Source of the DNA: a bacterium
GTDB lineage: Bacteria > SZUA-182 > DTGQ01
Length of the DNA: 64,000 nucleotides
Direction: 5' to 3'
NCBI GenBank assembly: GCA_023512255.1
Contig: JAILZY010000010.1
Coordinates: 2,246-66,245 of the forward strand
A model generated the notes under the pieces. That model was not told the origin of the DNA. It worked only from the letters and a program-made list of their open reading frames with translations, and made no database searches. A program made the position numbers and the translations under genes. Positions within the stretch are counted from its first letter, which is position 1. Every line of letters begins with the position of its first letter. Positions 1,987-63,960 of this stretch are shown piece after piece.

Positions 1987-2070
1987 CTAATTAAAGTTTT
2001 AGGAGGATGGATTGGAAGGAACCCTTTTTCAAAAGGGTTCCTTCCAAAATCACTACGATAAGTTCCTTCC
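1987..2070. repeat. MITE/REP-like composite palindromic element, copy 1 (partial: right half of P2 plus P3 plus an extra half-site)
   Basis: attaaagttttagg followed by ggaaggaaccctttttcaaaagggttccttcc (a 15-bp-stem palindrome) and an extra gttccttccaaa. The same modules recur at about 8.0, 10.9, 49.7 and 63.9 kb. Confidence 0.75.
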
Positions 2071-2265
2071 AAATCTTTCTTCCCAACTCTCCCTTCAAGA
2101 ATTACCTTGATGCTCAAGCCCTTATCGGTTTCATACAGTGTAACTATACGAATAATCATAAGCATTGTCAATGAATTATGAATTTTTCACGACATAAGGA
2201 TTAAACAGTAAACTTGGCTTAGACATAAAACAATTTCCTCGAAAGAGGGCAAAATTCAATTTGAT

Positions 2266-3063
2266 GTGAGAGTTTTAGATGAGAAAGAGAGTAAAGCGAT
2301 TATGCTGGTCATTGAGAATCTAAGTGTTCGTCTTTTTAACCGGATTATCCTACACGGTGTTAATTTGCACATCCCCGCGGGTGAGGTTCACGTTCTGTTT
2401 GGCCCAAATGGATCGGGCAAGACAACCCTGCTGATGACCATTATGGGATTTGCCGACTATGAAGTTATTTCAGGCCAGATTATTTTTAATGGTAAAGATA
2501 TTACTAATCTTCCTGTTTATGAGCGGGCTCAAGCAGGGCTTGGGCTTTCATTTCAGCGGCCTCCAACCATAAAGGGAGTAAAGACCCAGCAGATGCTCGA
2601 AATTTGCAATCGCCACAGCCAACAGGATTATCGACCATTGGTCGAAGAGCTAAATTTCCAGGATTTTTTGGGCCGTGATGTCAATCAGGGATTTTCAGGT
2701 GGGGAAATCAAAAGATCAGAGCTCCTACAGCTCCTAGTACAATCTCCCACCTTAGCCCTTTTGGATGAGCCAGAGTCAGGCGTAGACCTTGAGAATATCG
2801 CTCTCATCGGTAGGGGTATCAACAAGCTGCTCCGTCGACAGTGGCCTGCAGAGGAATCAGCCGAATGCCGGCGCAAGGTACGGGAAGAGCGCAAGATCGG
2901 CGGCCTGATCATTACCCATACTGGTTATATCCTTGACTATGTGGATGCAGATCGGGGGTATGTGATGATGAACGGAACAATCGCCTGCCAGGGGAATCCG
3001 CGGGAGATACTGCGCTGCATCAAGGAGGTAGGATATGAGGAGTGTGTGCGATGCATGATCTAG
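2266..3063 (+). CDS. sufC: Fe-S cluster assembly ATPase SufC (ABC ATPase)
   Basis: Walker A GPNGSGKTTLL and ABC signature FSGGEIKRSELLQLL. Overall similar to E. coli SufC (MLSIKDL...GPNGSGKSTLS). GTG start at 2266 with an AGAGGG RBS; the alternative ATG at 2302 (MLVIENLSV) matches the SufC N-terminus better. Confidence 0.75.
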   Translation: MRVLDEKESKAIMLVIENLSVRLFNRIILHGVNLHIPAGEVHVLFGPNGSGKTTLLMTIMGFADYEVISGQIIFNGKDITNLPVYERAQAGLGLSFQRPPTIKGVKTQQMLEICNRHSQQDYRPLVEELNFQDFLGRDVNQGFSGGEIKRSELLQLLVQSPTLALLDEPESGVDLENIALIGRGINKLLRRQWPAEESAECRRKVREERKIGGLIITHTGYILDYVDADRGYVMMNGTIACQGNPREILRCIKEVGYEECVRCMI

Positions 3064-4271: not shown

Positions 4272-4645
4272 AAGGACAAAAAAGAGTATATGGGACCATA
4301 GTGCTCAATGGATAGTGCCAGTCGATTTATTGAGATATTACACTATTTAACTGCCCTGATCGGGCAGTCAATTAAACTGAACCAGTGCCGACTCAGGGCT
4401 TCATAATTCTAGATGTTACCTGCATTCCAATACCCCACACCCCGGCTTACACCACTTTCGAAGAGGAAAAATTACTCGTGGCTTTTGATCAGGATATTTT
4501 GTAGGATAGAGAAAAAAATGGGGGTTGATTTGATCAAAGAGATTTGCTAAGGTAGGTATGTAAGTATTTTAAACTAAAAAATATATATACTTATACGTCT
4601 TTTAGGTATCTAAATTGAATAATTTTTGATTATTTTGCGTGAGGA

Positions 4646-7600: not shown

Positions 7601-7987
7601 GAAGGCGAGCCAGCTAGATCTTTGAGCGAGAGGCGCATCAAACGATCCCCCTTGCGGGATGTGGCAGGTATGCTAAGATCACTTCATTATGCAGCCTACA
7701 CCGCTCTGCTGAAAAAAGCCCTGATCAGGGCCGAGGATCGGATACAGCTTGAGCCCTGGGCCGAGCTGTGGTACAAATATAGCGGAGGCACTTTTCTAAG
7801 ATCATATCTTGATACGGCCAAGGGGGCGCCTTTTATCCCCCAGGAAAGAAATGAGCTGCGGATCATGCTCGATGCCTTTCTCCTCGATAAGGCGATTTAT
7901 GAGATTGGATATGAATTAAATAATCGGCCTGATTGGGTAGCTATCCCCTTGAGAGGAGTAAAACGATTGCTTGAGGAAAAAGAGTAA
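4646..7987 (+). CDS. treS: Trehalose synthase / maltokinase fusion (TreS-Mak/Pep2)
   Basis: N-terminal GH13 trehalose synthase (AVIYELHVRAFYDSNGDGIGDFPGLTQKLDHLENLGITAIWLLPFYPSPLRDDGYD) followed by a C-terminal maltokinase-like kinase domain of about 450 aa. 1113 aa in total. Confidence 0.85.
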   Translation: MELISLQKTAYLEDDPLWYKDAVIYELHVRAFYDSNGDGIGDFPGLTQKLDHLENLGITAIWLLPFYPSPLRDDGYDIANYFDVHPDYGTLRDFKEFLKEAHRRGIRVITELVLNHTSDQHEWFQRARRAKPGSKWRNFYVWDSPQKYQDARIIFKDFETSNWAWDPLAKTYYWHRFYSHQPDLNYDHPPVQKAMLRVIDYWLNMGVDGLRLDAVPYLFEREGTNCENLPETFEFLKKLRAHIDSRFKGRMLLAEANQWPEDAVNYFGQGDECHMAFHFPLMPRMFMAIRMENRYPIIEILDQTPPIPDVCQWALFLRNHDELTLEMVTDEERDYMYRIYAKDRTARINLGIRRRLAPLLENDRRKIELMNFLLLSLPGTPVIYYGDEIGMGDNYYLGDRNGVRTPMQWSGDRNAGFSRANPQKLYLPVIIDPEYHYEAVNVENQDRSQSSLLWWMRHFIAMRNNFKAFGRGRIEFLYPENMKILAFIRQYQDENILVVVNLSRHPQLVELDLSKYAGYVPVEAFSKNPFLAIREHHPYALTLGSYGYYLFLLERQKEGGEVRATRALPQIQVSRKWEMLFEGKAKEVLEEEILPLFLKNARWFGGKMRRIQQVKIVKDISVGKTPPATHLLFLEVQYTEGVPDMYLLPLSFAQEDQGQKIIEESPQGVIAKLAVDETRGIIYDGLYSPKFRHDLLMMVVKRLKVKDKEGELAAYPGKALRDFIRREQIPSESQVLRAEQSNSSILYGNKFFLKLFRRLEEGMNSELEMLWFLTEKLSFPHVPPFAGVIEYRKPKAEPLILAIVQGFVPNAGDAWSYTLDALEGYFGMVLSKVGEIQELPKAPASPLEAAYQEIPPLFQELMSAYLDMISILGKRTAELHLALASDPENPHFALEPYSLLHQRAVYQSLQTGALHTLQLLEKSLSVLPAEERKLAEEILSSKKQVISKFKAILQKKICSGKIRIHGDYHLGQVLYTGKDFVIIDFEGEPARSLSERRIKRSPLRDVAGMLRSLHYAAYTALLKKALIRAEDRIQLEPWAELWYKYSGGTFLRSYLDTAKGAPFIPQERNELRIMLDAFLLDKAIYEIGYELNNRPDWVAIPLRGVKRLLEEKE

Positions 7988-7990
7988 AAA

Positions 7991-8139
7991 GGGGAAAACC
8001 CTTTTGAAAAAGGGTTTTCCCCTTGTAACCCCTTTCCTAAAACTTTAATAACTATAGTTATTAAAGTTTTAGGAGGATGGTTTGGAAGGAACCCTTTTTC
8101 AAAAGGGTTCCTTCCAAAGAATAAGGGTTCCTTCCAAAA
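7991..8139. repeat. MITE/REP-like composite palindromic element, copy 2 (complete: P1, P2, P3 and an extra half-site)
   Basis: P1 ggggaaaacccttttgaaaaagggttttcccc (7991-8022). P2 cctaaaactttaataactatagttattaaagttttagg (8036-8073). P3 ggaaggaaccctttttcaaaagggttccttcc (8084-8115). Extra gggttccttccaaaaa. Sits immediately after the treS stop. Confidence 0.8.
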
Positions 8140-8157: not shown

Positions 8158-10164
8158 GTGGAGAGAGTGAGTCTTTTAACTGAGAATGATATTTATTTAT
8201 TTAGGGAAGGGAGCCATTTTAGGCTTTATGAGAAGCTTGGCTCGCATTTGCTCACTGTTGATGGAACCAGTGGAGTTTACTTTGCAGTCTGGGCTCCGAA
8301 TGCTGAGCAGGTTACAGTGATGGGAAAATTCAACGACTGGAACCCTGACTCCCATCCCTTGGCCCTGCGAGCGGATGGCTCAGGGATTTGGGAGGTGTTT
8401 ATTCCGGGGATCGCTCACGGAACTCCTTATAAGTACCATATCAGATCAAGGTATGAAAACTACCGCGCTGATAAGGGAGACCCATTTGCTTTCTTTTGGG
8501 AGCCTGCCCCAGAGACAGCCTCGGTAGTCTGGGACTTAAAGTATGAGTGGGCAGACAGTGATTGGATGAAAAACCGCAGCCAGGCCAATGCTCTCAATGC
8601 GCCTATAGCTATCTACGAAGTGCATCTTGGATCGTGGAGGCGGCATCCAGAAGATGGAGGCCGACCACTCACCTATCGGGAGATAGCCGAGCCCCTGGCT
8701 GATTATGTCAAGAAGATGGGGTTTACTCACGTTGAGTTTCTGCCGATTATGGAGCATCCCTTCTATGGCTCCTGGGGATATCAGATCGTCGGCTTTTTTG
8801 CTCCTACCAGCAGATTCGGCACTCCTCAGGATTTTATGTATCTGATCGATTATCTCCACCAGCGCGGGATAGGGGTTATCCTTGACTGGGTGCCTTCGCA
8901 TTTTCCCGATAATATCCAGGGGTTGGTCTACTTTGATGGTACGCATCTTTATGAGCATGCTGATCCGCGAAAGGGATTCCATCCCGAATGGAAGAGCTAT
9001 ATCTTTAACTATGGTCGCCACGAGGTCAGGGCGTTTCTGATTAGCTTTGCGCTCTTTTGGTTTGACCGCTACCATATTGATGGCATCAGGGTAGATGCCG
9101 TAGCCTCCATGCTCTACCTTGACTATGCCCGGAAAGAGGGCGAGTGGATCCCGAATGAGTATGGCGGCAAGGAGAATATCGAAGCCATTAGCTTTATCAA
9201 ACGGCTGAATGAGGCTATCTACCGGGCCTACCCTGATGTTCAGACCATAGCTGAAGAGTCAACCGCCTGGCCGATGGTTTCTCGGCCGATTTATATCGGA
9301 GGGTTAGGGTTTGGCCTAAAATGGAACATGGGCTGGATGCATGATACTCTGTCTTATTTTTCCAAAGACCCTGTCTATCGAAAGTATCATCATAATCAGT
9401 TGACCTTCAGCATCTGGTATGCTTTCTGGGAAAACTTTGTTCTGCCCCTCTCTCATGATGAAGTGGTCTATGGGAAAGGCTCTCTACTTAGCAAAATGCC
9501 TGGGGATGATTGGCAGAAATTCGCTAATCTGCGCCTTTTGCTAGGTTATATGTATGCTCATCCGGGCAAAAAGCTCTTGTTTATGGGCGGAGAGTTCGCC
9601 CAGTGGCGAGAGTGGAACCATGATGAAAGCCTTGAGTGGCATCTTCTGGCATATTTTCCCCATCAAGGGGTGCAGAGGTGGGTCGAAGACCTAAATCACC
9701 GCTATGCTTCAGAGCCTGCACTCTATGAGCTTGACTTTAGCAGCCAAGGGTTTGAATGGGTAGATTTTCATGATGCTGAATCAAGTGTAATTAGCTTTAT
9801 CAGGCGGGGGAAAACAACCCTTGATCAGATCTTAGTAGTCTGCAATTTCACTCCAGTGCCTAGAGAAAATTACCTAGTGGGAGTGCCGCAAGGCGGCCTC
9901 TGGAAAGAGATCCTAAACAGCGATGCCACGATTTATGGCGGAAGCGGCTGGGGGAATTTCGGTCAAGTCGAGGCTACCCCATTTCCTGCTCATGGTCGGA
10001 ACTACTCTCTGTCGCTGGTGCTGCCCCCTCTTGGCATTATTTTCCTCAAGAAAGAGGCAGGAGAACCAGAGGTTAAGGCGGAAGGAGAGCTTGCAGAGCT
10101 AGGAGAGGTTGCTGTGCCGGAGCAAAAGGAGCAAGAAGCGCCGGAAAATGAAGGCTGTGAGTGA
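8158..10164 (+). CDS. glgB: 1,4-alpha-glucan branching enzyme (short form) with an acidic C-terminal tail
   Basis: GH13 branching-enzyme motifs ([57 protein letters not shown]). 668 aa, lacks the long N-terminal domain. Ends in [14 protein letters not shown]. Confidence 0.85.
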
Positions 10165-10874
10165 GAGAGTGTATGCACTATCAGGATATTCATCCCTGGG
10201 CGGTTAGTCCTCAAGAAGCAGCTGAGATTCAACGAAGGCTTAGCCAGATGGTTGAGTCCCGACCCATTACCAAGCCGATAGCCTTGGTCGCCGGAGCAGA
10301 TATCTCTTACTCAAAGAGAGATAATCGCCTAGTGGCTGCGGTGGTAGTCATGACCTTCCCGAAGCTTGAGATCGTAGAGCAGATCGAGGTCGAGGGAGAA
10401 ACTGCCTTTCCCTATATTCCGGGCTTTCTTAGCTTTCGCGAAGCACCAGCCATGCTCGAAGCTTTTAGCCGGCTGCGGCATGAGCCTGATGTTATCATGG
10501 TTGACGGCCAAGGCATAGCCCATCCACGAGGCTTGGGCCTTGCCTCTCACCTTGGGGTAATCCTTGACCATCCGACCATTGGTTGCGCCAAGACCAGACT
10601 AATTGGAAAATACGCCGAGCCTGGAGAGCAAAAGGGAGAAAGATCTCCTCTCTGGCAGGGTGGAAAAATAATCGGCATGGTGCTTAGAACTAGACGAGGG
10701 ACCAAGCCGCTGTTTATCTCCATTGGCCACAAGATCGACCTAGATACAGCAGTGTCAATAGTTTTGGCCTGTACCAGAGCCTTTCGTCTTCCAGAACCTG
10801 TACGACAAGCTCACCTTTTTTGTAAGGGGAAAACCCTTTTGAAAAAGGGTTTTCCCCTTAAACCCTTTTCCTAA
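10161..10874 (+). CDS. nfi: Endonuclease V (deoxyinosine 3' endonuclease)
   Basis: Colinear with E. coli Nfi ([60 protein letters not shown]). The last roughly 14 codons and the stop are supplied by MITE copy 3. Confidence 0.8.
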
Positions 10875-10946
10875 AACTTTAATTAAATTAATTAAAGTTT
10901 TAGGAGGATGGTTTGGAAGGAACCCTTTTTCAAAAGGGTTCCTTCC
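10826..10946. repeat. MITE/REP-like composite palindromic element, copy 3 (complete)
   Basis: P1 10826-10857, P2 10870-10904 (centre ttaaattaa), P3 10915-10946. Overlaps the 3' end of nfi. Confidence 0.8.
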
Positions 10947-11023
10947 AACTTAATCCTTTTTCTGCCGATACAAAATCAGAGTAGAATCCAATATTAACCA
11001 TTAACACTAGGGGTATCTTTTAT

Positions 11024-12268
11024 ATGCCAGCAGCTAGCCAGCCAAGGTCATTATCCATTCGGATTGGGGAGCGTCTGCCTATGAAGGATCAATCCCTTGA
11101 GATTGTGGAAAAGAAAGGGAAGGGGCACCCTGACTCAATCTGCGACTGTCTGATGGAGGAGGCCTCTTGCGCCTTAGTGCAGCTTTATAAGAAATACACT
11201 GGCCGAATCCTCCACTATAATCTCGACAAGGGGCTGCTATCTGCTGGCCAGGCAGCAGTAGCTTTTGGCGGGGGGAGGATTATCACTCCTCTTCGGATGA
11301 TCATCGGGGATCGGGCCACGCTTCACTACCTTGGGCAGGAGTTGCCGGTCTGGGATACTGTGGTTGAATCAGCCCGCAATTGGATCAGACGAAACCTAAG
11401 ATATTTTGATCCGGATCAGCATATAACTTTCCAAAGCGGCCTTAATCCTGGATCAAGGGAGCTTATGGGTATCTTTACGCCAAGTGAAAGACAGGTGCTC
11501 AAAGCGAATGATACCTCGGCCACCGTAGGATTTGCTCCCTTCACTCCGACTGAAGAGCTGGTCGTCTCGCTAGAGCAGTATCTTACCTCAGTCTGTTTCC
11601 AGGAAAAATTCCCATCTGCTGGTGAAGATATCAAGATCATGGCTGTCCGATCAGATCAAGCGTTAGACCTGACCATTGCCCTGGCTATGGTGGACCGCTT
11701 CATAGCCAGTGAGAGTGACTACTTTGATCAGAAGGAAGCTATAAGACGGTCCATAGCTGACTTTGTCCGCTCCCGCTTTGATGCCTCCCCTTTGCAGATC
11801 CATCTCAATACCCTGGATGAGCGGGGGAGGGGTGAGGATGGAATTTACATTACAGTAACCGGAACATCTGCCGAGCAGGGTGACAGCGGACAGGTTGGTC
11901 GGGGAAACCAGGTGAGCGGCCTTATTTGCCTGATGCGGCCGCAGAGCGGTGAGGCTTCAGCCGGAAAAAATCCCATCAGCCATGTAGGGAAAATTTATAA
12001 TTATCTGGCTCATATATTGGCTGCTGATATTTATCAGCACTTTGAAGAAGCAGGGGAGGTTATGGTTTGGTTAGCCAGCCGAATCGGAGAGCCGATTGAT
12101 CGGCCGGCACTGGTTGCGGTTGAGCTCATTCCCCAGAAGGGGAAGAAGCTGGCTGCTGGCTACCAGAAGGTTATTGCCTGGCGGGTAGAGCAGCATTTGG
12201 AAGGAATTGCCGATCTTTCCCAGAAGCTGATTTTGGGGGAGGTATCTTTATCTCATCTTTCATTCTGA
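11024..12268 (+). CDS. mat: Archaeal-type S-adenosylmethionine synthetase (methionine adenosyltransferase)
   Basis: EIVEKKGKGHPDSICD matches the archaeal MAT N-terminal signature (…EIVERKGLGHPDSICD in Methanococcus). Length about 400 aa, not the bacterial MetK layout. The probable true start is the ATG at 11081 (MKDQSLEIVEKK). Confidence 0.75.
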   Translation: MPAASQPRSLSIRIGERLPMKDQSLEIVEKKGKGHPDSICDCLMEEASCALVQLYKKYTGRILHYNLDKGLLSAGQAAVAFGGGRIITPLRMIIGDRATLHYLGQELPVWDTVVESARNWIRRNLRYFDPDQHITFQSGLNPGSRELMGIFTPSERQVLKANDTSATVGFAPFTPTEELVVSLEQYLTSVCFQEKFPSAGEDIKIMAVRSDQALDLTIALAMVDRFIASESDYFDQKEAIRRSIADFVRSRFDASPLQIHLNTLDERGRGEDGIYITVTGTSAEQGDSGQVGRGNQVSGLICLMRPQSGEASAGKNPISHVGKIYNYLAHILAADIYQHFEEAGEVMVWLASRIGEPIDRPALVAVELIPQKGKKLAAGYQKVIAWRVEQHLEGIADLSQKLILGEVSLSHLSF

Positions 12269-12381: not shown

Positions 12382-14154
12382 ATGAGGAAGGGTATGAAAA
12401 TCGATCTAGGGCCATCAATACCGATCCAGCAATTGTCAAAAGCCATCCATAAGACACCGGAAGAAATTGAAAACTCTCTGCGGGGCAGGGGAAAAGTGCT
12501 CAGAGCTGGAGATGGCCTAAAGGTTGATCAGGCTATCTGGATTGCCGAGCAGGAGGGTTTTAGGGTCAGGATCTTGAGCCGGGGCAAGGAGGAGGCTCTA
12601 TCCATAGAGCCGGAGAAAAAGTCGCTGATTCAGCCTCGGCCTCCGGTTGTAACAGTCATGGGGCATGTGGATCATGGCAAAACCGTTCTCCTTGATGCCA
12701 TTCGGCATACTAACCTGGCTAGCCAGGAGCCGGGTGCTATAACCCAGCATATTGGAGCCTACAAAATTCATTTGCCGGGCGGAGATATTGTCTTTTTGGA
12801 CACTCCTGGACATGAGGCCTTTGCAGCTATGAGGGCCAGAGGTGCCCAGCTGACAGATATTGTGGTCCTGGTTGTGGCCGCGGATGAGGGGGTTAAGCCT
12901 CAGACTATTGAGGCGGTGCAGCATGCCCAGGCGGCACGGGTTCCCATAATCGTAGCTGTGAATAAGATCGACAAGCCCCAAGCCAATCCCGCTCGCGTCA
13001 GGGAGGAGCTAGCTCAATATGGGCTGATCCCTGAGGAGTGGCAAGGTGAGACCATTTATGTGGATATTTCGGCCAAGTATCATCAAAACCTGGATAAGCT
13101 GCTTGAGATGATTTTGCTTTTGTCTGAGATGATGGAACTTAAGGCTGACCAGAGCAGAGCGGCTCGAGGAACGGTTTTAGAAAGTAGAATCGATCCGCAG
13201 CTTGGCCCGACAGCAACCGTCCTGGTTCAGGATGGAACCTTGAGGATTCGGGATTTTTTTGTCTGCGGCCAGACCTTTGGCCGGGTTAGACTAATGATGA
13301 ATGAGTGGGGCAAGCGGATGGAGACAGCTCCTCCTTCGACTCCGGTTCAGATTTCCTCCTTTTCTCAGGTCCCAAGAGCCGGTGATCCCTTTTTGGTTAT
13401 CTCCGGCGAGAAAGAAGCTAGAAAACTGGCTGATCTAATTGGCAGGCAGGAGCAGGGGGCAAAGAGACTAAGACCAAGGCCAACCACTCTGGAGGAGGTT
13501 CAGCGGGAAATCCGAAAGGAGGCCATCCCTGAGCTGCCGATTGTTCTAAAAGTGGATGTTTACGGATCCTTGCAGCCCATTGTTCAGTCTTTGCAGAGCC
13601 TAGCCATCCCTGGGGCCAGGATAACCATAATTCATAGCGGAGTGGGAGCAATCAGCGAATCGGATGTACTCTTGGCCTCAGCGACTTCTGAACGCGGGAT
13701 CATCATCGGCTTTAATGTCAAGCCAGACAGCAAAGCCGAGCTCCTTGCCCGTCAGGAGCGAGTCGACATCCGGCTATACAGTGTCATCTATGATTTGATC
13801 AATGAGGTTAGCAGACTGGCTCAAGGGCTGGTCATTCCCCGCTACCGGGAAGAGATTATTGGCCGGGGTGAGGTGATTCGGGTTTTCCACATTCCCAAGG
13901 TGGGTGTTGTAGCTGGCTGCCTTGTTCAGGAAGGGAAATTTGTCAAGGGCCGCCAGGGTAGAGTGATTCGCCGAGGGATTATTATCCACACCGGTGAGAT
14001 CGTTTCCCTGAAGCACTATGATCAGTTTGTAGATGAAATTGGCCAGGGGAAGACCTGTGGTCTGATGCTATCTCGGGGGTTTACCCGCTATCAGGTCAAG
14101 GATCAGGTTGAAGTTTTTATCAGAGAAGAATTACCCAAAGGAGGAGAAGAGTGA
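12382..14154 (+). CDS. infB: Translation initiation factor IF-2 (short form)
   Basis: G domain [65 protein letters not shown], with downstream IF2 domains colinear with E. coli IF-2. Not flanked by nusA or rbfA in this window. Confidence 0.85.
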
Positions 14155-37600: not shown

Positions 37601-40600
37601 TGGCCACTCAGCTTGATAATAACCTGATTCGCTGGTGCTGTCCGCTGGCCAAGGCTGAGGTGGATAGTCAGTCTTTGTGGTGCTGGCCCTGTCCGTATGT
37701 AGTGGAAAAGGATGGTCAGCTTACCCGCTGGTGTTGTCCTGTGGCTCAAAATGTAGACACGCAACTTTGGTGCAGGCCATGTCCTTATCCCAAGGCTACT
37801 GATAAGGAGCTTAATATATACTGCTGTCCTGTGGCTACGGCGACGGCGGCTGGCCAGGCAATGTGGTGTCGGCCTTGTCCTTTGGCTTCAGATGTAGCAG
37901 ATGAGGCACTCAAGCTTTGGTGCTGTCCGCTGGCTCAGGCTGAGGTTGGGGCGGCAGATGCCCTGTGGTGTCGGCCATGCCCTGTGGCTACGACGACGGC
38001 AGCCGGCCAGGCTCTGTGGTGCTGGCCCTGCCCGGTGGCTTCTGTTGATGCGGCAAGCGCAGATGCTCTGTGGTGTCGGCCATGTCCGGTTCCGATAACT
38101 CCGCTGCCTGACAATTGCCTAATTGGAACGGTTAAAGAAATTCAACATCATGTCTCGGTCGGACGATCTGATCTAAAGGTAGTGGATGAATCGGGAAATA
38201 TTAGGGAGATATCTGTACCGCTTACCCAGGCCGAAAATCTCAAGGTTGGCGATAAGGTTAAAGTTTGCATTGAGACGGATAAAAATGGCGAGATTATTTC
38301 AATCACCATTGAAAAGTACGATCCTAACGCACAGGTAGTGCCTCCAGCTCAGATTTGCTGTCCGCTGGCTCAGGCTGAGGTTGGGGCGGCAGATGCTCTG
38401 TGGTGTCGGCCATGCCCGATAGCTTCTGTTGATGCGGCGAGCGCAGATGCCCTGTGGTGTCGGCCATGCCCTGTGGCTACGACGACGGCAGCCGGCCAGG
38501 CTCTGTGGTGCTGGCCTTGCCCGATAGCTTCTGTTGATGCGGCGAGTGCAGATGCCCTGTGGTGTCGGCCATGTCCCTATGAGATTCATATGCCAGATGG
38601 GACGATTAGGCGCTGCTGCCCTGTGGCTACGGCGACGGCAGCCAACCAGGCTCTGTGGTGCCGGCCTTGTCCTGTGGCTTATGTTGATGCGGCGAGCGCA
38701 GATGCCCTGTGGTGTCGGCCCTGTCCTGTGGCTACGACGACGGCAGATGGCCAGGCCCTGTGGTGTCGGCCCTGTCCTGTGGCCACTCAGCTTGATAATA
38801 ACCTGATTCGCTGGTGCTGTCCGCTGGCCAAGGCTGAGGTGGATAGTCAGTCTTTGTGGTGCTGGCCCTGTCCGTATGTAGTGGAAAAGGATGGTCAGCT
38901 TACCCGCTGGTGTTGTCCTGTGGCTCAAAATGTAGACACGCAACTTTGGTGCAGGCCATGTCCTTATCCCAAGGCTACTGATAAGGAGCTTAATATATAC
39001 TGCTGTCCTGTGGCTACGGCGACGGCGGCTGGCCAGGCAATGTGGTGTCGGCCTTGTCCTTTGGCTTCAGATGTAGCAGATGAGGCACTCAAGCTTTGGT
39101 GCTGTCCGCTGGCTCAGGCTGAGGTTGGGGCGGCAGATGCTCTGTGGTGTCGGCCCTGTCCTGTGGCTACGACGACGGCAGCCGGCCAGGCTCTGTGGTG
39201 CTGGCCCTGCCCGATAGCTTCTGTTGATGCGGCAAGTACAGATGCCCTGTGGTGTCCGCCCTGCCCGGTGGCTACGACTACGGCAGCCGGCCAGGCTCTG
39301 TGGTGTCGGCCCTGCCCGGTGGCTTCTGTTGATGCGGCGAGCGCAGATGCCCTGTGGTGTCGGCCCTGCCCTGTGGCTACGACGACGGCAGCCGGCCAGG
39401 CTCTGTGGTGCCAGCCAGGAGTAGTTACCGAATGTTTAGAGGAAACCTCAGGAGCCTTGGACATTGAAGGCGCTCAGGCAGATGTGGGTGATGAGGTCAA
39501 GATCAAGATTCGGATTCAGAATGCGCCCGGTGTGGTATCTTCCTTCGGCTTTGAGGTTATCTACAGGTCGGATATTTTAGAGTATCAAGGCTTTGAGCGC
39601 GGAAATCTCGTACTTTCCTTCCCCATGATTGATGTTAGCCCAAGCGGCCCAGACAGGCTCAAGGTGGGAGGATTATCAGCGAATCCTATACCGCAGGGAG
39701 CAAGTGGTTCGGTTGTGGTGCTAAAATTCAAGGTCATAGGTGGTGTGAAAGATGAATGTTATCCCTTGAGTCTGGAAAATCTGGTAGATGATCTAGTCAA
39801 ATTCTCCAAAACTGGCGGCTGTCTATGCATCAAGGATACTGTACCACCTCAGATTACCTGCCCGGGAGATAGGGTTATCGGCCAGATAAATAGCGATGGT
39901 ACGCCTGCTGACGATCCTGAGGTAGTTGCCTTCCTCGCTGAGGCCAAAGCATGGGATGCAGTTGATGGTGAGGTTGCGGTTTCAGCCACCTTCCAATTTG
40001 ATCAGACCAGTGGAGTTACCAGCACTAGTGAGCCTGTCCCTGGAGCTGAAATAATTATAGATGCAGACGATCAAGCCAAGATATTTTCTGGCAATCCTCT
40101 TATCCTTCCTCCTGGCCAGACCACAGTAATCTTTACCGCTAGAGACAAAGCTGGCAACAGCTCTTCCTGCACAGCTACGATCACCATTCAGCCAATGGTA
40201 TGCGAGGAGGATGAGTCCGGGCAGCTCGATATTAAAGGCACGGAAGGCAGGATAGGAGAGGAAGTGAAGATTCCGATTCGGATTCAGAATGCGCCCGGTG
40301 CCATCTCTGCTCTTGGCTTTGAGGTAAGCTACAAACCCTCTGTCCTTGAGTATGTTGGGTTTGAGCGAGGAAGCCTGGCGGCCTCTTTCTCTGTCTTCGA
40401 TGTCAACCCAATTGCCTCTGGCAGGCTCATTGTAGGTGGATACTCCACCCGAGGTATCCCGCAGGGAGCAAGCGGCGATCTGCTTATCCTGAAGTTTAAG
40501 GTTAAGGATGGTATGGAAGGTGGATGCTATCCCTTGAAGCTGGATGGGCTGACGGATGATGTGGTTAACTTTACAGCCAGCCCGGGTTGCTTCTGTATCA

Positions 40601-40854
40601 AGAGCTGCAACGGCGATCAAAATGGAGATGGAGTTATTACTCCTGCTGATGCGCTCATAGTGTTCAAGTGTTACCTTGGATCAGGACCTTGCGGCGATTG
40701 CGCTGATGTTGATGGCAACGGCAGTGTTACTCCGGCTGATGCCCTGTGTCTGTTCAAGAAATACCTGGGTCAGCCTTCTTGTCTGGATAACCTTATTAAG
40801 CTTAATGCTCAAAATAAGGGAACCTTTGCCGTAAGTGGAAAATCAGACGCCTAA
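34675..40854 (+). CDS. Giant secreted multidomain protein (2059 aa): signal/anchor, PD40 (TolB-like) 6-blade beta-propeller, Cys-rich linker domain, two arrays of about 26 'WC[RW]PCP' 20-residue cysteine repeats, cohesin, HYR, cohesin, type-I dockerin
   Basis: Hydrophobic N-terminus WWAKLVSSSCLVLFTIIALSVGCMGIW. PD40 blades ...YDMYGYDL, PDIFLYDL, YDIYGLDL, DDIYLYDL, WDIYGYDL, KNIYAATL. Repeats ALWCRPCPVATTTAAGQALWCWPCPVASVDAASAD... Cohesin-like DIEGAQADVGDEVKIKIRIQNAPGVVSSFGFEVIYRSDILEYQGFERG and DIKGTEGRIGEEVKIPIRIQNAPGAISALGFEVSYKPSVLEYVGFERG. HYR-like PPQITCPGDRV...TARDKAGNSSSCTATITI. Dockerin DQNGDGVITPADALIVFK / DVDGNGSVTPADALCLFK. Confidence 0.8.
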   Translation: MRSKSKEFFSDQKGVLRIMSKVKDNWWAKLVSSSCLVLFTIIALSVGCMGIWVSKTEAGGVNLSLSGQAIYPQPVDQEVPEIYGTKVVWMQQGNDYYYKVFLGDLETGTSRQLGSSPAAEKYPAIWENKVIWMDYRSIMDDPTVENKYAYIFKYYDMYGYDLEKNQEFPICTNPEWQGYGDIQKDRVVYADMRTGSPDIFLYDLRSSQEYAICIHPAWQGNPVIYDNYVIWMDERSGNYDIYGLDLATGKEFPICTAADNQAYPAISGTKVVWQDKRSGNDDIYLYDLATKQEIAICTHPGKQQVPDICGNIIVWQDDRNGNWDIYGYDLTTYQEFQITNQSGDETFPAISGDRIVWVDSRSGHKNIYAATLPSGFAPQANNQVRNRESITAASSLGDSITAMSFAASSLASSIATTIAPNIEILIPELIPEITIPAITSPIIEVPKTGPSIIGYENSGCKKEITSTTIRAPEEEKFTYKYQDNILYLFHENASYNCCIEEIAITMEVVGNIINIYEDERLEGGGCRCLCTYDITTKIGCLEPGTYEVKFFNKQTGKLLGVIKEVVIPPIPCLLSAAAPVQKCCPLPCTDPINRCCPYASAVPEQRCVVCPVPWWPCPCSYFDDMEQDTWTFSRGISSSSSISTPLPPPPIQEIDYSTAQYVSPKRSIWAYVASYLETATDASITGAGYRTLGEGAELATASSTSASLAAAANARVSASRSFELCGCENLKLKLSYQIRYSISKINQYLYRRVAVEVMAYDAAGNQMGKRTYVLFRNPIQVLSQEDIDIVLPAQSAWQTLARSLQKDIPIKWCEARKLQVILKAEGYFPAGQGDFVETFWDDLAIEGQNCNIILPCCPLAQAEVGAADALWCRPCPVATTTAASQALWCWPCPVASVDAASADALWCRPCPYEIHMPDGTIRRCCPVATTTAANQALWCWPCPIATGVEVNVQSWCCPLAKAEVDTQVLWCRPCPVATQLDNNLIRWCCPLAKAEVDSQSLWCWPCPYVVEKDGQLTRWCCPVAQNVDTQLWCRPCPYPKATDKELNIYCCPVATATAAGQAMWCRPCPLASDVADEALKLWCCPLAQAEVGAADALWCRPCPVATTTAAGQALWCWPCPVASVDAASADALWCRPCPVPITPLPDNCLIGTVKEIQHHVSVGRSDLKVVDESGNIREISVPLTQAENLKVGDKVKVCIETDKNGEIISITIEKYDPNAQVVPPAQICCPLAQAEVGAADALWCRPCPIASVDAASADALWCRPCPVATTTAAGQALWCWPCPIASVDAASADALWCRPCPYEIHMPDGTIRRCCPVATATAANQALWCRPCPVAYVDAASADALWCRPCPVATTTADGQALWCRPCPVATQLDNNLIRWCCPLAKAEVDSQSLWCWPCPYVVEKDGQLTRWCCPVAQNVDTQLWCRPCPYPKATDKELNIYCCPVATATAAGQAMWCRPCPLASDVADEALKLWCCPLAQAEVGAADALWCRPCPVATTTAAGQALWCWPCPIASVDAASTDALWCPPCPVATTTAAGQALWCRPCPVASVDAASADALWCRPCPVATTTAAGQALWCQPGVVTECLEETSGALDIEGAQADVGDEVKIKIRIQNAPGVVSSFGFEVIYRSDILEYQGFERGNLVLSFPMIDVSPSGPDRLKVGGLSANPIPQGASGSVVVLKFKVIGGVKDECYPLSLENLVDDLVKFSKTGGCLCIKDTVPPQITCPGDRVIGQINSDGTPADDPEVVAFLAEAKAWDAVDGEVAVSATFQFDQTSGVTSTSEPVPGAEIIIDADDQAKIFSGNPLILPPGQTTVIFTARDKAGNSSSCTATITIQPMVCEEDESGQLDIKGTEGRIGEEVKIPIRIQNAPGAISALGFEVSYKPSVLEYVGFERGSLAASFSVFDVNPIASGRLIVGGYSTRGIPQGASGDLLILKFKVKDGMEGGCYPLKLDGLTDDVVNFTASPGCFCIKSCNGDQNGDGVITPADALIVFKCYLGSGPCGDCADVDGNGSVTPADALCLFKKYLGQPSCLDNLIKLNAQNKGTFAVSGKSDA
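37240..39415 (+). repeat. Coding tandem-repeat arrays (60-bp units encoding WC[RW]PCP) in two blocks (37240-38095 and 38356-39415), including a 100%-identical 361-bp duplication (37600-37960 = 38779-39139)
   Basis: Direct comparison of the sequence lines shows identical text at an offset of about 1180 bp. The shadow ORFs on the opposite strand are artefacts of this repeat. Confidence 0.9.
39440..40790 (+). other. C-terminal cohesin, HYR, cohesin and dockerin module of the giant protein (approximate domain span)
   Basis: The domain-signature sequences are listed under the giant CDS. Dockerin calcium-binding repeats lie at about 40606-40790. Confidence 0.6.
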
Positions 40855-49647: not shown

Positions 49648-49765
49648 GTAACTTTAATGTAAGGTTATTAAAAGTTTTAGGAAAGGGGTTTTGAGGGGAA
49701 AACCCTTTTTCAAAAGGGTTTTCCCCTCAAAAAAGGTTTTTTCCCTTAAGGGTTTTCCCCTCAAC
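49648..49765. repeat. MITE/REP-like composite palindromic element, copy 4 (rearranged: degenerate P2, then P1-like with extra half-sites)
   Basis: gtaactttaatgtaaggttattaaaagttttagg, then ggggaaaaccctttttcaaaagggttttcccc, then ggttttttcccttaagggttttcccc. Generates spurious ORFs on both strands. Confidence 0.7.
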
Positions 49766-52639: not shown

Positions 52640-52728
52640 TAATGACAATCCTTAGGGTCTTGCTTTAGGGGCTTGTCTTATCCTTGTTGTTAGCTTCTAT
52701 CCTCACTTTTCGCTCTTTTAAGCCCTAA
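52640..52728. repeat. Direct repeat A (about 87 bp), about 90% identical to a second copy at 54197-54285
   Basis: aatgacaatccttagggtcttgctttaggggcttgtcttatccttgttgttagcttctatcctcacttttcgctcttttaagccct versus aatgacagtctttagggccttgctttatgggcttgtcttatccttgctggcagcttctatcctcgctttttgctcttttaagtcct. Confidence 0.8.
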
Positions 52729-53138: not shown

Positions 53139-53684
53139 TCACCGGTCCGACTTAATTTTTTGTTTGCTCAATTCTACGAGCATTTGCATGATGGTATCAA
53201 GTCTTTGGTTTACTTGTCCAATCTGAGTATCGATCTTCTGATTTAGTTGTCCAATCTGGGTATCGATTTTCTGGTTTAATTGTCCAATCTGAGTATCGAT
53301 CTTCTGGTTTAGTTGTCCAATCTGAGTATCGATTTTCTGTTCAAGAGCATCTACTTTTTGATCTACCCTATCAATCTTTTGGTTTACTTGCCCTATGTAA
53401 GTATCAATCTTTTGGTTTACTTGTTCTATCTGAGTTTCAACTTTCTGCTCAAGAGCATCTACTTTTTGATCTATTCTCTGGTTTATCTGATCTACTCTCT
53501 GATTTATCTGGCTGATTTCTTGCCTGACTTGTCCAATTTGAGTATTGAGATATCGAAAGTCGGCCTCTTGCTTGTTTTTGAGCTCTGCTATATCCCTTTT
53601 AATTTCTGCCGTCCGCTCCTCTATGGCCTCATAGATTATTTCCAGCGATATCTTCTTGATTATCCTGTTAGCAAGCTCTTTCAT
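53139..53684 (-). CDS. Coiled-coil protein built of tandem 11-residue (hendecad) repeats QKIDTQIGQLN
   Basis: Start taken at MKELANRI (ATG 53684). At least 12 near-identical 11-mers. No TM segment or signal peptide. Confidence 0.5.
   Translation of the reverse strand: MKELANRIIKKISLEIIYEAIEERTAEIKRDIAELKNKQEADFRYLNTQIGQVRQEISQINQRVDQINQRIDQKVDALEQKVETQIEQVNQKIDTYIGQVNQKIDRVDQKVDALEQKIDTQIGQLNQKIDTQIGQLNQKIDTQIGQLNQKIDTQIGQVNQRLDTIMQMLVELSKQKIKSDR
53214..53345. repeat. Four perfect or near-perfect 33-bp tandem repeats (ttgtccaatctgagtatcgatcttctggtttag), with degenerate copies to about 53530, encoding the hendecad repeats
   Basis: Units at 53214-53246, 53247-53279, 53280-53312 and 53313-53345. 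Confidence 0.85.
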
Positions 53685-53685
53685 T

Positions 53686-53934
53686 TCACAACTGCCTTGC
53701 TGAAAAAAGAAATAACGGTCTGAATCCAGGAGTTTGAAGCTGGGCAAAGCCGAAGAATATAGCGATAGCCGCAGCAATTAAGCCTAAAAAGAAGGTAATT
53801 GCACTTCCAAGTATCCGATAATGTCTACCTGCTTTGTTACTCCTAATCTTCCCCTCGGGGATTAATTTCATAAGAGTCTGCCTGGTAATTCTTAGATATT
53901 CTGCAGCCTCTTTTGTGGTTAAAACTTCGTGCAT
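53686..53934 (-). CDS. Excisionase/MerR-type helix-turn-helix DNA-binding protein with a C-terminal transmembrane helix
   Basis: LTTKEAAEYLRITRQTLMKLIPEGKIRSNKAGRHYRI is an excisionase-family HTH. Then ITFFLGLIAAAIAIFFGF. Its stop is 1 nt from the start of the coiled-coil gene. A frameshifted fusion of the two genes is an alternative reading. Confidence 0.5.
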   Translation of the reverse strand: MHEVLTTKEAAEYLRITRQTLMKLIPEGKIRSNKAGRHYRILGSAITFFLGLIAAAIAIFFGFAQLQTPGFRPLFLFSARQL

Positions 53935-54196
53935 TTTTATTTACCTAGTCAACTATATTGTTTTGCTTCAGTTACTAAAAATATACTTTGATTAACAGTC
54001 ATGGTCAAGCAAATAATTCAGTTATTGTTATAGTCAATCAATATAGTCAAGCCAAAAATTCACCAGAAATAGAGTATGAGCCCGAGGTTGAGAGGCAAAG
54101 TCTGAGCAAGTTGCCAGAAGGGGGCCAGCGGTAGCCCCGATATTGATAGCGTAATTGATCCACTGCACTTGTGCTACACATTTAGCGAAAAGACCA

Positions 54197-54285
54197 ATGA
54201 CAGTCTTTAGGGCCTTGCTTTATGGGCTTGTCTTATCCTTGCTGGCAGCTTCTATCCTCGCTTTTTGCTCTTTTAAGTCCTCTTC
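54197..54285. repeat. Direct repeat B (partner of 52640-52728)
   Basis: See repeat A. Overlaps the last roughly 22 codons of the metallophosphoesterase gene. Confidence 0.8.
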
Positions 54286-55781: not shown

Positions 55782-55869
55782 GTTTGATTTGTAAGGGTTG
55801 TCCTTCAGAAGCCTCTTCTAGCATCCAGATGTTTCCCACATAATCTATAACTTTTTGCTAAAAAACAGC

Positions 55870-60506: not shown

Positions 60507-60565
60507 CACGGGAGGGGCAGTAACCTTGCTTCCTCAAAGCTGCCCCTCCCGTGTAGTTTTTTATT
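60507..60565 (+). terminator. Rho-independent terminator after the 787-aa gene (cacgggaggggcag-N19-ctgcccctcccgtg followed by ttttttatt)
   Basis: Perfect 14-bp GC-rich stem followed by a T-run. A second 8-bp hairpin (catggagg...cctccatg) lies just upstream. Confidence 0.55.
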
Positions 60566-60860
60566 GGGGTTCTCCCTTTCACTATGCTTTTGTTGTCTGC
60601 CTCACCATGTCTGCTTTTTCATGTCTGCCTTTTTTATCTTTCTTACAGAATGTTTTTATGTTTCCCTTGACTGAACCTTATGCCAGAGCGAATGCTTGAT
60701 TGCATTTTAAAATCAATCAGTTAACTTTCACAAAATGTGTGAGTTAATATTCTGGATTTTGGAATATAAAGCTTTTCAGGTGTTCGCTCTGTATTCAGGC
60801 TGAAACAATCTGGTGAGAGATGAGAAAGTTACCGAAAAGGATGTAAGAGGGGGAAACATT

Positions 60861-61634: not shown

Positions 61635-61642
61635 ACCAGAAT

Positions 61643-63880
61643 ATGAGCGGAAGAAAAACTCTGTGCTGGGGATTCATTATTAGCCTTTCAATCAGCCTTG
61701 GCATGATTGGGCTCTATTTGAGGCATCCGCGGTTTTTGGAAGTTATTGAGCTGAAAGTGTTTGATCTGCGTTTTCGCTGGCGAGGGTGTATCCGTCCAGG
61801 GGCTGAGGTGGTCATTGCCGCTATAGACCAAAAGAGCATTGATGAGCTTGGCAGATGGCCCTGGCCACGGGCCAGAATGAGGTCCCTGGTTGAAGAGCTC
61901 AAAAGGAGTGGAGCCAAGATTGTGGCTTTTGATATCACCTTCCCCTCACCAGAGCAGGATCCGCTCTCGGCTGAAGAGTATGCCCTTGAGCTGATCAGGA
62001 ATATTGTCGATCTTCCGCTCGATCGGCAGAAGATCAGAAAGGCCTTGAGCCACCTTAATCCAGAGCGGGATTTTAGTCTGGCTCTTCAGAAAGCAGGCAA
62101 TGTTATTTTGGGCATGTTTTTCTTCCTCTCTCCCCAAGAGGTGCCAGAAGGAAAGAGGCTTCGGCCTATGCCCCCCTTTTTGTCTTCACAGCGCTATCCT
62201 CTGGTTCAGCAACCACAAAGCCCATCGGCTTCAGCCAGCCTGGTTCCTCGAGGCTATGGCTTTGAAGCTAGCCTTGATATCCTGGCTAGTTCTGCTTTGG
62301 CCAATGGGTGTTTTAACCTGTATCCAGACTTTGATGGCACGATTCGTTGGGCTCCCTTGATCATCGAATATCAGGGAAATTATTATCCTTCGCTGGACAT
62401 TCAGGTCATCAAGCATTACTGGGATTTGGGGAGAGATTCCATCCTGGTCCAAATGGGAGATCGGGGAGTAGAGAGCCTGCTCATCGAAGGCATTCCCATT
62501 CCAGTTGACGCCCGCGGGCATCTGCTCATTAACTACCGCGGACCGCACGATACCTTTGCCCACTACAGCGTAAGCGATATTCTGGCCCGGCGCATACCGG
62601 TTGAAACCTTTCGGGATAAGATCGTTCTGGTTGGAACTACTGCTGTGGGTATCTATGATCTTCGCTATACGCCGTATAAGATCATGTCTGGGGTTGAAAT
62701 CCATGCCAACATCCTGGATAGCCTGCTCCATCTCGATTTTCTCTCCCTGCCTAGGCATTATTTTCTGGCTGATGTTGGAATTTTATTGGCTTTTGGCCTG
62801 CTGCTGAGTCTTTTTCTTCCCCTTGCTCGGCCCCTTGTGGGTTTAGGGCTGACGGCTGCCCTGCTCACAGGCTATGCCGCTTTCAGCCAGTATCTTTTCA
62901 CTGTCCGTGGGGTATGGATCAATCTGGTCTATCCGCTCGCCCAAATCATGATTATCTTTACCATGATTAGCCTTTATCGCTACGCAACTGAGGAGCGAGA
63001 AAAGAGGAGGATTAAAAACTCATTCGAGCGATATCTTGCCCCTGCTCTGGTTCGAGAGCTAATCCGAAATCCTCAGATGCTGAGTCTTGGTGGAGAGCGG
63101 AAGTTTTTGACTGTTCTTTTTTCCGATATCAGGGGGTTTACCTCTATCTCCGAACAGCTTAAGCCCGAAGCCTTAGTTTCATTTTTAAACGAATATATGA
63201 GCACGATGTCCGGCATTATCTTGCATTATTCGGGATTTTTGGACAAATTCATCGGTGATGCTATTATGGCCGTCTACTGTGCACCGATCAGTCGGCAAGA
63301 TCATGCTCTCCTGGCCTGCCAGACAGCGCTCGATATGCGGGCCGCCCTGGCTAAGATTAATCTTCGATTTCAAGAGAAAAATTTCCCGCAGATCAGAATT
63401 GGCATAGGCATTAATTCCGGGGAGATGATTGTCGGCAATATGGGCTCTCGAGAGCGTATGGATTATACGGTGCTCGGAGATAATGTCAATCTGGCCTCGC
63501 GGCTTGAGGGAATTACTAAGGTCTATGGGGTTGATGTGGTGATAAGTGAATTCACCTATCAGCTTGTGCGAGAGGAATTCATCGCTCGGGAGCTTGACAG
63601 AGTGCGGGTTAAGGGAAAAACGCAACCGGTAAAGATCTACGAATTGATGGCCAGAAGACAAGAGGCCGCACAGCTTGAATCATTGCTGAATAGTTATAAT
63701 CAAGGGCTCAGGGCCTACCAGGATCAGCAGTGGGAGGAAGGAATTAGGAGATTTCAGCAGGCTTTGCAAATCTGCCCCACTGACGGTCCGTCAAAATACT
63801 ATCTTGACCGCTGCCGGCAATATCAGTGTTCTCCCCCTGTTTCTGACTGGGATGGTGTGCTTACCCTGACGGCAAAGTAG
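61643..63880 (+). CDS. CHASE2-sensor class III adenylate/guanylate cyclase
   Basis: CHASE2 hallmark LGRWPWPRARMRSLVEELKRSGAKIVAFDITF. Three or four TM helices. Cyclase domain LTVLFSDIRGFTSISE...FIGDAIMAV...GINSGEMIVGNMG...YTVLGDNVNLASRLE. Confidence 0.85.
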   Translation: MSGRKTLCWGFIISLSISLGMIGLYLRHPRFLEVIELKVFDLRFRWRGCIRPGAEVVIAAIDQKSIDELGRWPWPRARMRSLVEELKRSGAKIVAFDITFPSPEQDPLSAEEYALELIRNIVDLPLDRQKIRKALSHLNPERDFSLALQKAGNVILGMFFFLSPQEVPEGKRLRPMPPFLSSQRYPLVQQPQSPSASASLVPRGYGFEASLDILASSALANGCFNLYPDFDGTIRWAPLIIEYQGNYYPSLDIQVIKHYWDLGRDSILVQMGDRGVESLLIEGIPIPVDARGHLLINYRGPHDTFAHYSVSDILARRIPVETFRDKIVLVGTTAVGIYDLRYTPYKIMSGVEIHANILDSLLHLDFLSLPRHYFLADVGILLAFGLLLSLFLPLARPLVGLGLTAALLTGYAAFSQYLFTVRGVWINLVYPLAQIMIIFTMISLYRYATEEREKRRIKNSFERYLAPALVRELIRNPQMLSLGGERKFLTVLFSDIRGFTSISEQLKPEALVSFLNEYMSTMSGIILHYSGFLDKFIGDAIMAVYCAPISRQDHALLACQTALDMRAALAKINLRFQEKNFPQIRIGIGINSGEMIVGNMGSRERMDYTVLGDNVNLASRLEGITKVYGVDVVISEFTYQLVREEFIARELDRVRVKGKTQPVKIYELMARRQEAAQLESLLNSYNQGLRAYQDQQWEEGIRRFQQALQICPTDGPSKYYLDRCRQYQCSPPVSDWDGVLTLTAK

Positions 63881-63884
63881 ATAA

Positions 63885-63960
63885 GGGGAAAACCCTTTTG
63901 AAAAAGGGTTTTCCCCTTTTCACCCCTTTCCTAAAACTTTTAATAACTAAACCTTTAATA
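63885..63960. repeat. MITE/REP-like element, copy 5 (P1 plus the left half of P2)
   Basis: ggggaaaacccttttgaaaaagggttttcccc at 63885-63916, then cctaaaacttttaataact. Sits immediately after the cyclase stop. Confidence 0.75.

Follow-up and report, generated by a model that had tools for sequence, protein, structure and literature searches.

Composite palindromic repeats in a bacterium of the SZUA-182 lineage: a genome-wide family resembling REPIN, BIME and MITE elements

The 64,000-nt stretch of bacterial DNA analyzed here (the window; GenBank assembly GCA_023512255.1, contig JAILZY010000010.1, positions 2,246 to 66,245 of the forward strand) contains copies of a composite palindromic repeat at five loci. 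Its complete version consists of three palindromes, P1, P2, and P3. The five loci probably represent a genome-wide, non-coding and non-autonomous family of nested palindromes of about 125-150 nt, which resembles REPINs, bacterial interspersed mosaic elements (BIMEs), and MITEs (miniature transposable elements with inverted repeats), and which would be mobilized in trans. The repeats had been noticed in an earlier note on this DNA, and that observation is confirmed: re-reading of the sequence located the five loci and the three palindromes where they had been placed, to within a few bases. The core of its interpretation, a MITE-like family or one of repetitive extragenic palindromes (REPs), is supported by at least 66 further unique loci in a related strain.

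Structure and genome-wide distribution of the repeats

Shuffled sequences were used as controls, and they exclude chance as the origin of the window copies. The P1 arm AAAAGGGTTYYCC occurs eight times in the window when up to one mismatch is allowed, compared to 0.64 expected occurrences and a maximum of three in the shuffles. The P2 half ATTAAAGTTTTAGG occurs nine times with up to two mismatches, compared to 0.72 expected, and the half-module pattern AAAGTTTTAGGA-N8-24-AACCCTTTT seven times, compared to none in 100 shuffles. A profile hidden Markov model (HMM) of the half-module found no match in the window beyond the five loci.

The unit of the family is a half-module of about 60 nt, which is composed of an 18-nt flank (ATTAAAGTTTTAGGA...), a purine-rich linker, and a hairpin with a stem of 15-18 bp and a total length of 32-36 nt. 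The window contains seven half-modules. In the composite P1-P2-P3, two non-identical half-modules are arranged in inverted order, and their paired flanks make P2, the center of which is AT-rich. P1 and P3 are the same half-module in inverted orientation, but their stems and linkers are not alike: AAGGGGTTACAA is the linker and GGGGAAAACCC the stem of the P1 half, while the P3 half contains linker GGATGGTTT and stem GGAAGGAACCC. When the flank is placed on the 5'-side, the loop reads TC in all seven window half-modules. P1 has the sequence GGGGAAAACCCTTTT-GA-AAAAGGGTTTTCCCC (7991-8022, 10826-10857, 63885-63916, and with an inverted loop at 49695-49726), P2 the sequence CCTAAAACTTTAAT ... ATTAAAGTTTTAGG in the two full composites, and P3 the sequence GGAAGGAACCCTTTT-TC-AAAAGGGTTCCTTCC (2014-2045, 8084-8115, 10915-10946). 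As a whole, each composite forms a long imperfect palindrome as well. RNA folding predicts three separate hairpins with about -77 kcal/mol for 131-137 nt (-77.4 for copy B), and RNAalifold applied to 43 composites yielded the same three-hairpin structure. A second direct copy of one arm lies beside the terminal hairpin of three window copies (Table 1).

Contigs of JGI metagenomes were scanned with the exact 20-nt junction of P2 and P3, which yielded 73 loci. Because an exact 20-mer was needed for a match, this number underestimates the copies per genome. Four of the loci overlap the window at 96-97.5% identity, and the JGI loci therefore stem from a closely related strain. Deduplication left 66 unique element loci, namely 46 full composites, 16 solitary half-modules, and 4 other arrangements; the summed lengths of the match-bearing Ga0078972 contigs are about 2.8 Mb. 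The P1-P2-P3 family is therefore genome-wide, with no fewer than these 66 further loci in a 96-97% identical strain. An assembly artefact was ruled out, because the window, the ENA assembly (L092), and the JGI assemblies share copies with strain-level differences.

The dozens of dispersed copies are near-invariant in sequence. The hairpin tips read CCCTTTT-GA-AAAAGGG, CCCTTAT-TCA-ATAAGGG, or CCCTTA-CTCGA-TAAGGG, all of which are symmetric, and CCCTTTTGAAAAAGGG, CCCTTATTCAATAAGGG, and CCCTTACTCGATAAGGG are symmetric tip variants among the copies of the related strain. In this strain TTTT-GA-AAAA forms 32 of 45 P1 tips, and TTTT-TC-AAAA 33 of 43 P3 tips. The closing pairs covary (TAAGGGG..CCCCTTA, TGAGGGG..CCCCTCA, TTAGGGG..CCCCTAA), and 17 of the 46 composites have an extra direct arm copy. 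The P2 center usually comprises 11-17 nt (range 11-29); four outliers have 50-165 nt, one of which is explained by the nested insertion of another MITE.

Insertion sites and neighboring genes

The nearest relatives of the window are the ENA contig L092 and the JGI loci L103, L118, L151, and L157, with about 97% identity. Copies A, B, C, and E are found at the same positions in such strains (copy A was matched in L092 and L103), and the repeats are fixed between them. Strain differences within the copies are internal indels of 14-21 nt, i.e., arm copies that were gained or lost. The repeats change by hairpin-symmetric substitutions and by the duplication or loss of single arms.

The two sister genomes GCA_040755755.1 and GCA_040752695.1 have kept the gene order treS-glgB-nfi, and no half-module is present in 92.6 kb of their sequence, compared to about seven expected at the density of the window. 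The spacer between treS and glgB has 170 nt in the window, 151 of which are element B, versus 34 nt (L177) and 125 nt in the sisters; both this site and the nfi site are empty in the two sister genomes. The repeats entered short intergenic spacers and the 3'-end of one gene after the split from the sisters, and the empty sites point to a mobility of the repeats. Together with the further loci, they also settle a reservation of the earlier note, according to which a restriction of the elements to this region without insertion polymorphism would speak against its interpretation.

The gene with the altered 3'-end is nfi. Its open reading frame (ORF; 10161-10874) runs through P1 of copy C, and its TAA stop codon lies inside P2. 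The homology of the protein to the sister proteins ends at ...RQAHL, after which the sisters carry unrelated tails of about 18 residues, and this comparison suggests that the last ~18 codons of nfi gave way to element C. The Endonuclease_5 domain stops at residue 218 of 237, and in L092 a variant of the P1 tip leads to an earlier stop (224 aa). The gene order breaks exactly at element C (window 10874-11024; loci L175-L178 were compared). In the window nfi is followed by metK-infB, while in both sisters other genes come after nfi, and lon precedes infB. Because the gene order differs downstream of nfi, element C is located at a rearrangement junction. The closest relatives of the initiation factor IF-2 have 83, 79, and 68% identity and all belong to unclassified metagenome-assembled genomes (MAGs), while all others have about 50%.

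Some further observations were made on the genes downstream of element C. The IF-2 of the window (12382-14154, 590 aa) is a short bacterial version that does not have the usual N-terminal region, and positions 11024-12268 encode an archaeal-type methionine adenosyltransferase (PF01941) in a bacterial host. The public metK call in L092 (10001-11377, P0001, 458 aa) has 44 surplus residues; its start is a TTG that belongs to the element and lies 6 nt past the AGGAGG. The sequence AGGAGG-ATG/TTG in the half-module mimics a ribosome-binding site and misleads gene callers.

The positions of all copies are summarized in Table 1. Copies had been described as lying directly behind the stop codons of treS, nfi, and the cyclase gene, which is correct for treS (1 nt) and the cyclase (2 nt), while the nfi stop codon is inside the element. 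The locations 5' of rtcA/sufC and of prs were borne out by copy A and by copy D. Copies A and D are indeed partial or rearranged, while copy E, which had been grouped with them, is a P1-P2 variant that runs off the end of the window. In L118, the orthologue of copy E lacks P3 and terminates in AAAGTTTTAGGAGGATGG; it also harbors an unrelated MITE of about 108 nt.

Table 1. Copies of the repeat in the window, their parts, and the adjacent genes
Feature	Position	Strand	Structure	Context
Copy A	1987..2075	+	Single half-module plus extra arm. P2 right half 1990-2003; linker AGGATGGATT; P3 hairpin 2012-2048; extra 3' arm 2060-2073	Between rtcA (minus strand, start codon 1961-1959) and sufC, which diverge
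Copy B	7989..8139	+	Full composite. P1 7989-8024; P2 8036-8073 (arms 8036-8049, 8060-8073); P3 8082-8118; extra 3' arm 8123-8138	1 nt past the treS stop (7985-7987); ends 18 nt upstream of the glgB start (8158)
Copy C	10824..10948	+	Full composite. P1 10824-10859; P2 10870-10904; P3 10913-10948	Between nfi and metK; gene-order break relative to the sister genomes
nfi element-encoded tail	10821..10874	+	Codons from P1 and TAA stop inside P2	
Copy D	49648..49765	+	Rearranged. P2-like hairpin 49650-49681; linker; P1-type hairpin 49693-49728; extra arms 49734-49763 (two incomplete copies of the 3' arm, 49734-49746 and 49749-49763)	Spermidine-synthase-like gene (ends 49523) on one side, prs (starts 49837) on the other
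Copy E	63883..64000	+	P1 63883-63918; P2 left half 63930-63943; center of ~50-60 nt; P2 right half begins at ~63994 and is cut by the window end	2 nt past the cyclase stop (63878-63880)

A few other repetitive features of the window were recorded. A 79-nt insert between sufBD and treS (4301-4379), which is missing in L092 and L103, ends in the hairpin ACTGCCCTGATCGGGCAGT. Two intergenic segments (52641-52726 and 54196-54281) form an 86-nt direct repeat with 88% identity, which may represent a small repeat family. An ORF of 2059 residues (34675-40854), which encodes cohesin and dockerin domains, contains in its interior a long series of diverged repeats of 105 and 150 nt (37240-39490; repeat families D1-D3, D5), and an ORF on the minus strand (53139-53777) consists of 33-nt (11-residue) tandem repeats and has weak matches to apolipoprotein/phasin-like coiled coils.

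The half-module in distant phyla

Contigs of assembled genomes were scanned with a degenerate version of the hairpin only, and the taxonomic range obtained is a lower bound. At least 91 loci were found, including Ruminococcus (with the isolate Ruminococcus sp. YE71) and other Clostridia. Desulfovibrionaceae (with the isolate Halodesulfovibrio spirochaetisodalis JC271), Desulfomonilaceae, other Thermodesulfobacteriota, Ca. Magnetomicrobium (Nitrospirota), and Ca. Glassbacteria are also among the matches listed, and in these groups the half-module is a multi-copy sequence. Two of the carriers are isolates, and several carrier genomes are MAGs. The 11-nt motif AGTTTT[AC]GGAA, which was outside of the query, is present within 45 nt of 65 of the 92 hairpins listed, compared to 0.33% of control positions. 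An alignment of 94 sequences revealed a common core with lineage-specific stem extensions, and compensatory changes were found in 7 of 13 hairpin pairs across phyla.

The arrangement of the module differs between lineages. In Ruminococcus, two non-identical half-modules surround a variable center of 40-230 nt, and in some copies the 3'-side of the hairpin carries the sequence RRTAR, in some cases GTAG. In delta-proteobacterial MAGs, one hairpin is accompanied by the flank and a flank variant on either side within a repeat of about 270-425 nt. The copies of Desulfovibrionaceae and Ca. Glassbacteria have an extra GC clamp, and copies of Ruminococcus, Ca. Magnetomicrobium, and Halodesulfovibrio share one extra (bulged) purine at a fixed place in the 5'-arm. 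Five matches were obtained in IMG/VR, all of them on prophage-like contigs and similar to the Halodesulfovibrio variant, and blastn searches of plasmid and phage collections gave no match to the module. A known RNA family was rejected: at the gathering threshold Rfam had no match in the window and none on the motif in 16 loci of other phyla, and below it only generic long-hairpin (microRNA-precursor) models appeared. Literature text searches with sequence strings retrieved no paper, and topic searches no description of the P1-P2-P3 family.

On this basis it can be proposed, albeit tentatively and at less than even confidence, that the half-module of about 60 nt (AAAGTTTTAGGAARGGGG, a variable stem extension, and GGGGRRAACCCTTTT-NN-AAAAGGGTTYYCCCC) is the core of a superfamily of hairpin repeats which spread between phyla and forms lineage-specific elements of 80-400 nt. 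It would comprise Bacillota, Desulfobacterota, Nitrospirota, Ca. Glassbacteria, and the unclassified clade of the window.

Additional features were seen at some of these loci. Several loci of delta-proteobacterial MAGs (L012, L022, L026, L052, L056, L083, and similar ones) have a second conserved hairpin, GTCGTGTGCGGG ... CCGCAAC, in their local repeat unit, about 120 nt upstream of the hairpin of the module. The reverse complement of this loop reads as a Shine-Dalgarno sequence plus ATG. Short inserts are present in the conserved hairpin loop at L174 (7761-7900), L065 (6636-6730), and L078 (575-688 and 5643-5756), and hairpin tips appear to be hot spots of insertion. At L051 (1-330), and also at L006, L011, and L045, all from Ruminococcus MAGs, unique sequence beyond the element is inversely duplicated. 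In L051 the duplicate is perfect over 31 nt and the element lies 174 nt into the locus; this could be a fold-back made by the assembler or a real longer palindrome.

Relationship to known repeats and alternative explanations

REPINs are REP doublets with the palindromes in inverted order, as far as the accounts consulted describe them (PMC3337134, PMC3116915), and REPs are marked by an unpaired tag, GTAG or CGTC, on one side of the palindrome (PMC3733652). The repeats described here are short extragenic palindromes, which occupy five loci of the 64-kb window and 66 or more unique loci of the related strain, and 46 of these 66 are inverted doublets. The REPIN/RAYT systems of Pseudomonas and enterobacteria likewise have inverted palindromic units that form one long hairpin, many extragenic copies that are near-identical within a genome, solitary units as decay products, and no target duplication. 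In contrast to these systems, the two units of the window family differ in type and no RAYT was found in the loci searched. REPIN-RAYT systems have also been described as vertically inherited and lineage-specific, whereas the half-module occurs across phyla and yet is missing from the sister genomes. The BIMEs of Escherichia coli, which are built from Y and Z REPs, are similarly modular, with two alternating hairpin types, a conserved linker, and variants that miss one module or have extra arms; they have no sequence similarity to the window family, the linker of which is itself a palindrome with a 14-bp stem.

ERIC/IRU and Correia (CREE/NEMIS) elements are also imperfect palindromes of 100-150 nt, which are intergenic, transcribed, and sometimes overlap ORF ends. 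To our knowledge, no transposase is known for any of them. However, they consist of one imperfect stem instead of three separate perfect hairpins, each is limited to one family or genus, and a TA duplication, IHF sites, and promoters are features of Correia elements. PATEs and the ends of IS200/IS605 share with the repeats subterminal hairpins that are probably read on single-stranded DNA, the lack of a target duplication, and a fixed extrahelical base in some lineages. The end hairpins of IS200/IS605 have the same orientation, while the half-modules of the window are inverted, with no TnpA/TnpB nearby. A CRISPR array was ruled out, since the copies are 3-39 kb apart between housekeeping genes; integron attC sites, for which the RYYYAAC/GTTRRRY boxes are missing, and inverted repeats of the Tn3 type were ruled out on anatomy. 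Inverted repeat ends, a small size, and the lack of coding capacity agree with MITEs. As the element is MITE-like in its inverted ends and its insertion and unlike MITEs in target duplication, and REPIN-like without tag or RAYT, it was filed as REPIN/BIME-like. By analogy it would work like a repeat of the REPIN/BIME type, of which it is not a demonstrated family member.

The repeats would be copied in trans by an unlinked enzyme that reads flank plus hairpin on single-stranded DNA. An HUH/Y1 enzyme similar to RAYT is the leading guess, because a target duplication is missing and because the elements terminate in hairpins, with a difference between the two ends. Enzyme searches covered about 1.4 Mb of loci around copies. 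Pfam scans found no transposase among the window ORFs. The ORFs around the copies were also clustered, and the multi-copy families among them proved to be ordinary genes, such as those of sensor kinases, ABC transporters, and TPR proteins; the ORFs between two elements are ordinary as well. Nor was a full-length or ORF-bearing parent element found between module pairs in these loci, and the repeated unit of the delta-proteobacterial MAGs does not exceed ~425 nt, in line with a non-autonomous element. Nothing was thus found among the ORFs near copies, and a single unlinked gene elsewhere would correspond to the RAYT pattern.

Several results weigh against a REPIN-like family that is mobilized in trans. 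The REP tag GTAG/CGTC is missing beside the window hairpins, which are bounded by TAAGGGG...CCCCTTA and TTTGGAAGG...CCTTCCAAA. Two checks that the earlier note had suggested, for target-site duplications and for a cognate transposase, turned out negative: no direct repeat borders the 46 composites, the ends of which are not defined to the base, and no enzyme of the IS200/IS605 type or any other transposase was found near any copy in the ~1.4 Mb. A phmmer search of the 6388 ORFs of the loci with approximate sequences of three Y1 transposases (IS200, IS608, and RAYT) gave no match. Furthermore, all 25 homologous locus pairs, including the window versus the 97% strains, are filled, and no transposition event was caught, while two other MITE families are polymorphic in presence between the same strains. 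Therefore, the P1-P2-P3 family is older or quieter than these two.

The two other MITE families were observed as follows. One has about 108 nt and the ends CTATGCTTTTGCAC...GTGCAAAAGTGTAG, with an empty site near position 54145 of the window that is filled in L151. It is also located in the AT-rich center of two P1-P2-P3 elements (L118, 4309-4416, in copy E; L107, 5356-5596), in L118 with the target duplication CTTTAAT. The other has about 110 nt (CTCTTATATATCAGAC...GCTAATAAATAAGAG); its site near 55850 is empty in the window and filled in L151, where the insertion is accompanied by a duplication of about 13 nt of ATAACTTTTTGCT.

At the transcript level, the role as canonical terminators that had been considered was not corroborated. 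Only one of five hairpins between 1500 and 11500 passes a terminator pattern, namely P1 of copy B, which is antisense to treS/glgB, and intrinsic terminators were rejected because no U-tract, i.e., no T-run behind the hairpins, is present on the gene strand in the window. Transcribed repeats would instead form three stable hairpins, for which a function as barriers against 3'-exonucleases or as processing sites is plausible by analogy with REPs. A near-consensus promoter match (TTGACA-17-TATAGT) is found upstream of rtcA at 2171-2143 on the minus strand, and copy A would therefore be part of the rtcA leader. The Shine-Dalgarno sequence of rtcA, GGGGAGG, could moreover pair with the unpaired CCATCCTCCT of copy A, which is located 25 nt upstream of it (window 1961-2010).

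The location of copies at the stop codons of treS, the cyclase gene, and many genes of the related strain, together with the extremely stable fold, would also fit immobile RNA elements selected by the host, i.e., bidirectional 3'-end hairpins that stabilize or terminate transcripts and that arise anew by local duplication or recombination. Of 22 single modules in other taxa, 14 lie between co-directional genes, 8 between convergent genes, and none between divergent genes, which places each of them downstream of one gene or two, and in Ca. Magnetomicrobium long T-runs follow the hairpin, whereas the window has no U-tract on the gene strand and its sole terminator-like hairpin is antisense. Copy A is situated between divergent genes, and crude ORF calls for 37 composites of the related strain gave 20 co-directional, 11 divergent, and 6 convergent cases. 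In favor of such RNA elements, the P1-to-P3 strand of this strain is the slightly more stable one in 32 cases versus 14 (mean difference 1.5 kcal/mol), and P1 is next to the upstream gene in 14 cases versus 6, again by crude calls; none of these orientation and strand biases is strong, and the copies do not represent independent cases. A strand asymmetry deduced from G-U pairs was discarded as unreliable, because the aligner turns the bulged base into G-U pairs. Against them, the sister genomes manage the same operon without the element, and near-identical dispersed copies require a copying process instead of a local origin. Host-selected RNA elements are thus regarded as somewhat unlikely.

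Classical MITEs of a DDE transposase, i.e., an internally deleted insertion sequence with the half-modules as terminal inverted repeats of about 55 bp, appear unlikely as well. Such an origin would account for the inverted ends, whose slightly different left and right versions resemble IRL and IRR, for constant ends around an inner part that varies from 11 nt to about 230 nt between lineages, and for a patchy distribution that fits horizontal spread. It is at odds with the missing target-site duplication at the 46 composites, with the lack of a full-length element or a transposase between module pairs in any locus, and with the frequency of solitary half-modules (16 of 66 loci). The conservation of the primary sequence of flank plus hairpin across phyla exceeds the needs of pairing (65 of the 92 hairpins listed), and this, like the AT-rich P2 center, might indicate duplex DNA sites for a conserved chromosomal protein, comparable to parS or to BIMEs that bind gyrase or IHF, which were spread or homogenized by gene conversion. 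However, the symmetric, compensatory changes seen both within one genome and between phyla are those of a strand that folds on itself, a fixed bulged purine in the 5'-arm would be meaningless in duplex DNA, and the distribution is patchy, with sister genomes that have no module, so that duplex sites seem quite improbable. A REPIN/BIME/MITE-like family that is mobilized in trans is therefore the explanation that we favor.

Locally, the repeats provide an example of how a repeat can rewrite the end of a gene, as exemplified by the element-encoded tail of nfi, and copy C marks the break in the order of nfi and metK. On a larger scale, REPs, REPINs, and MITEs are considered to be lineage-specific; a survey of 183,232 genomes found MITE clusters to be genus-specific with 2.6% exceptions (PMC11602168), and a 60-nt module that is absent in sister genomes and near-identical in distant phyla is unusual for small palindromic repeats. 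If the superfamily is real, it would be without precedent among REP/MITE-like families in that its sequence is conserved between phyla, and one conserved partner, a mobilizing enzyme or a binding protein, would read flank plus hairpin in all lineages. As isolates carry the module, both what copies it and whether one recognition system serves different phyla are open to experiment.

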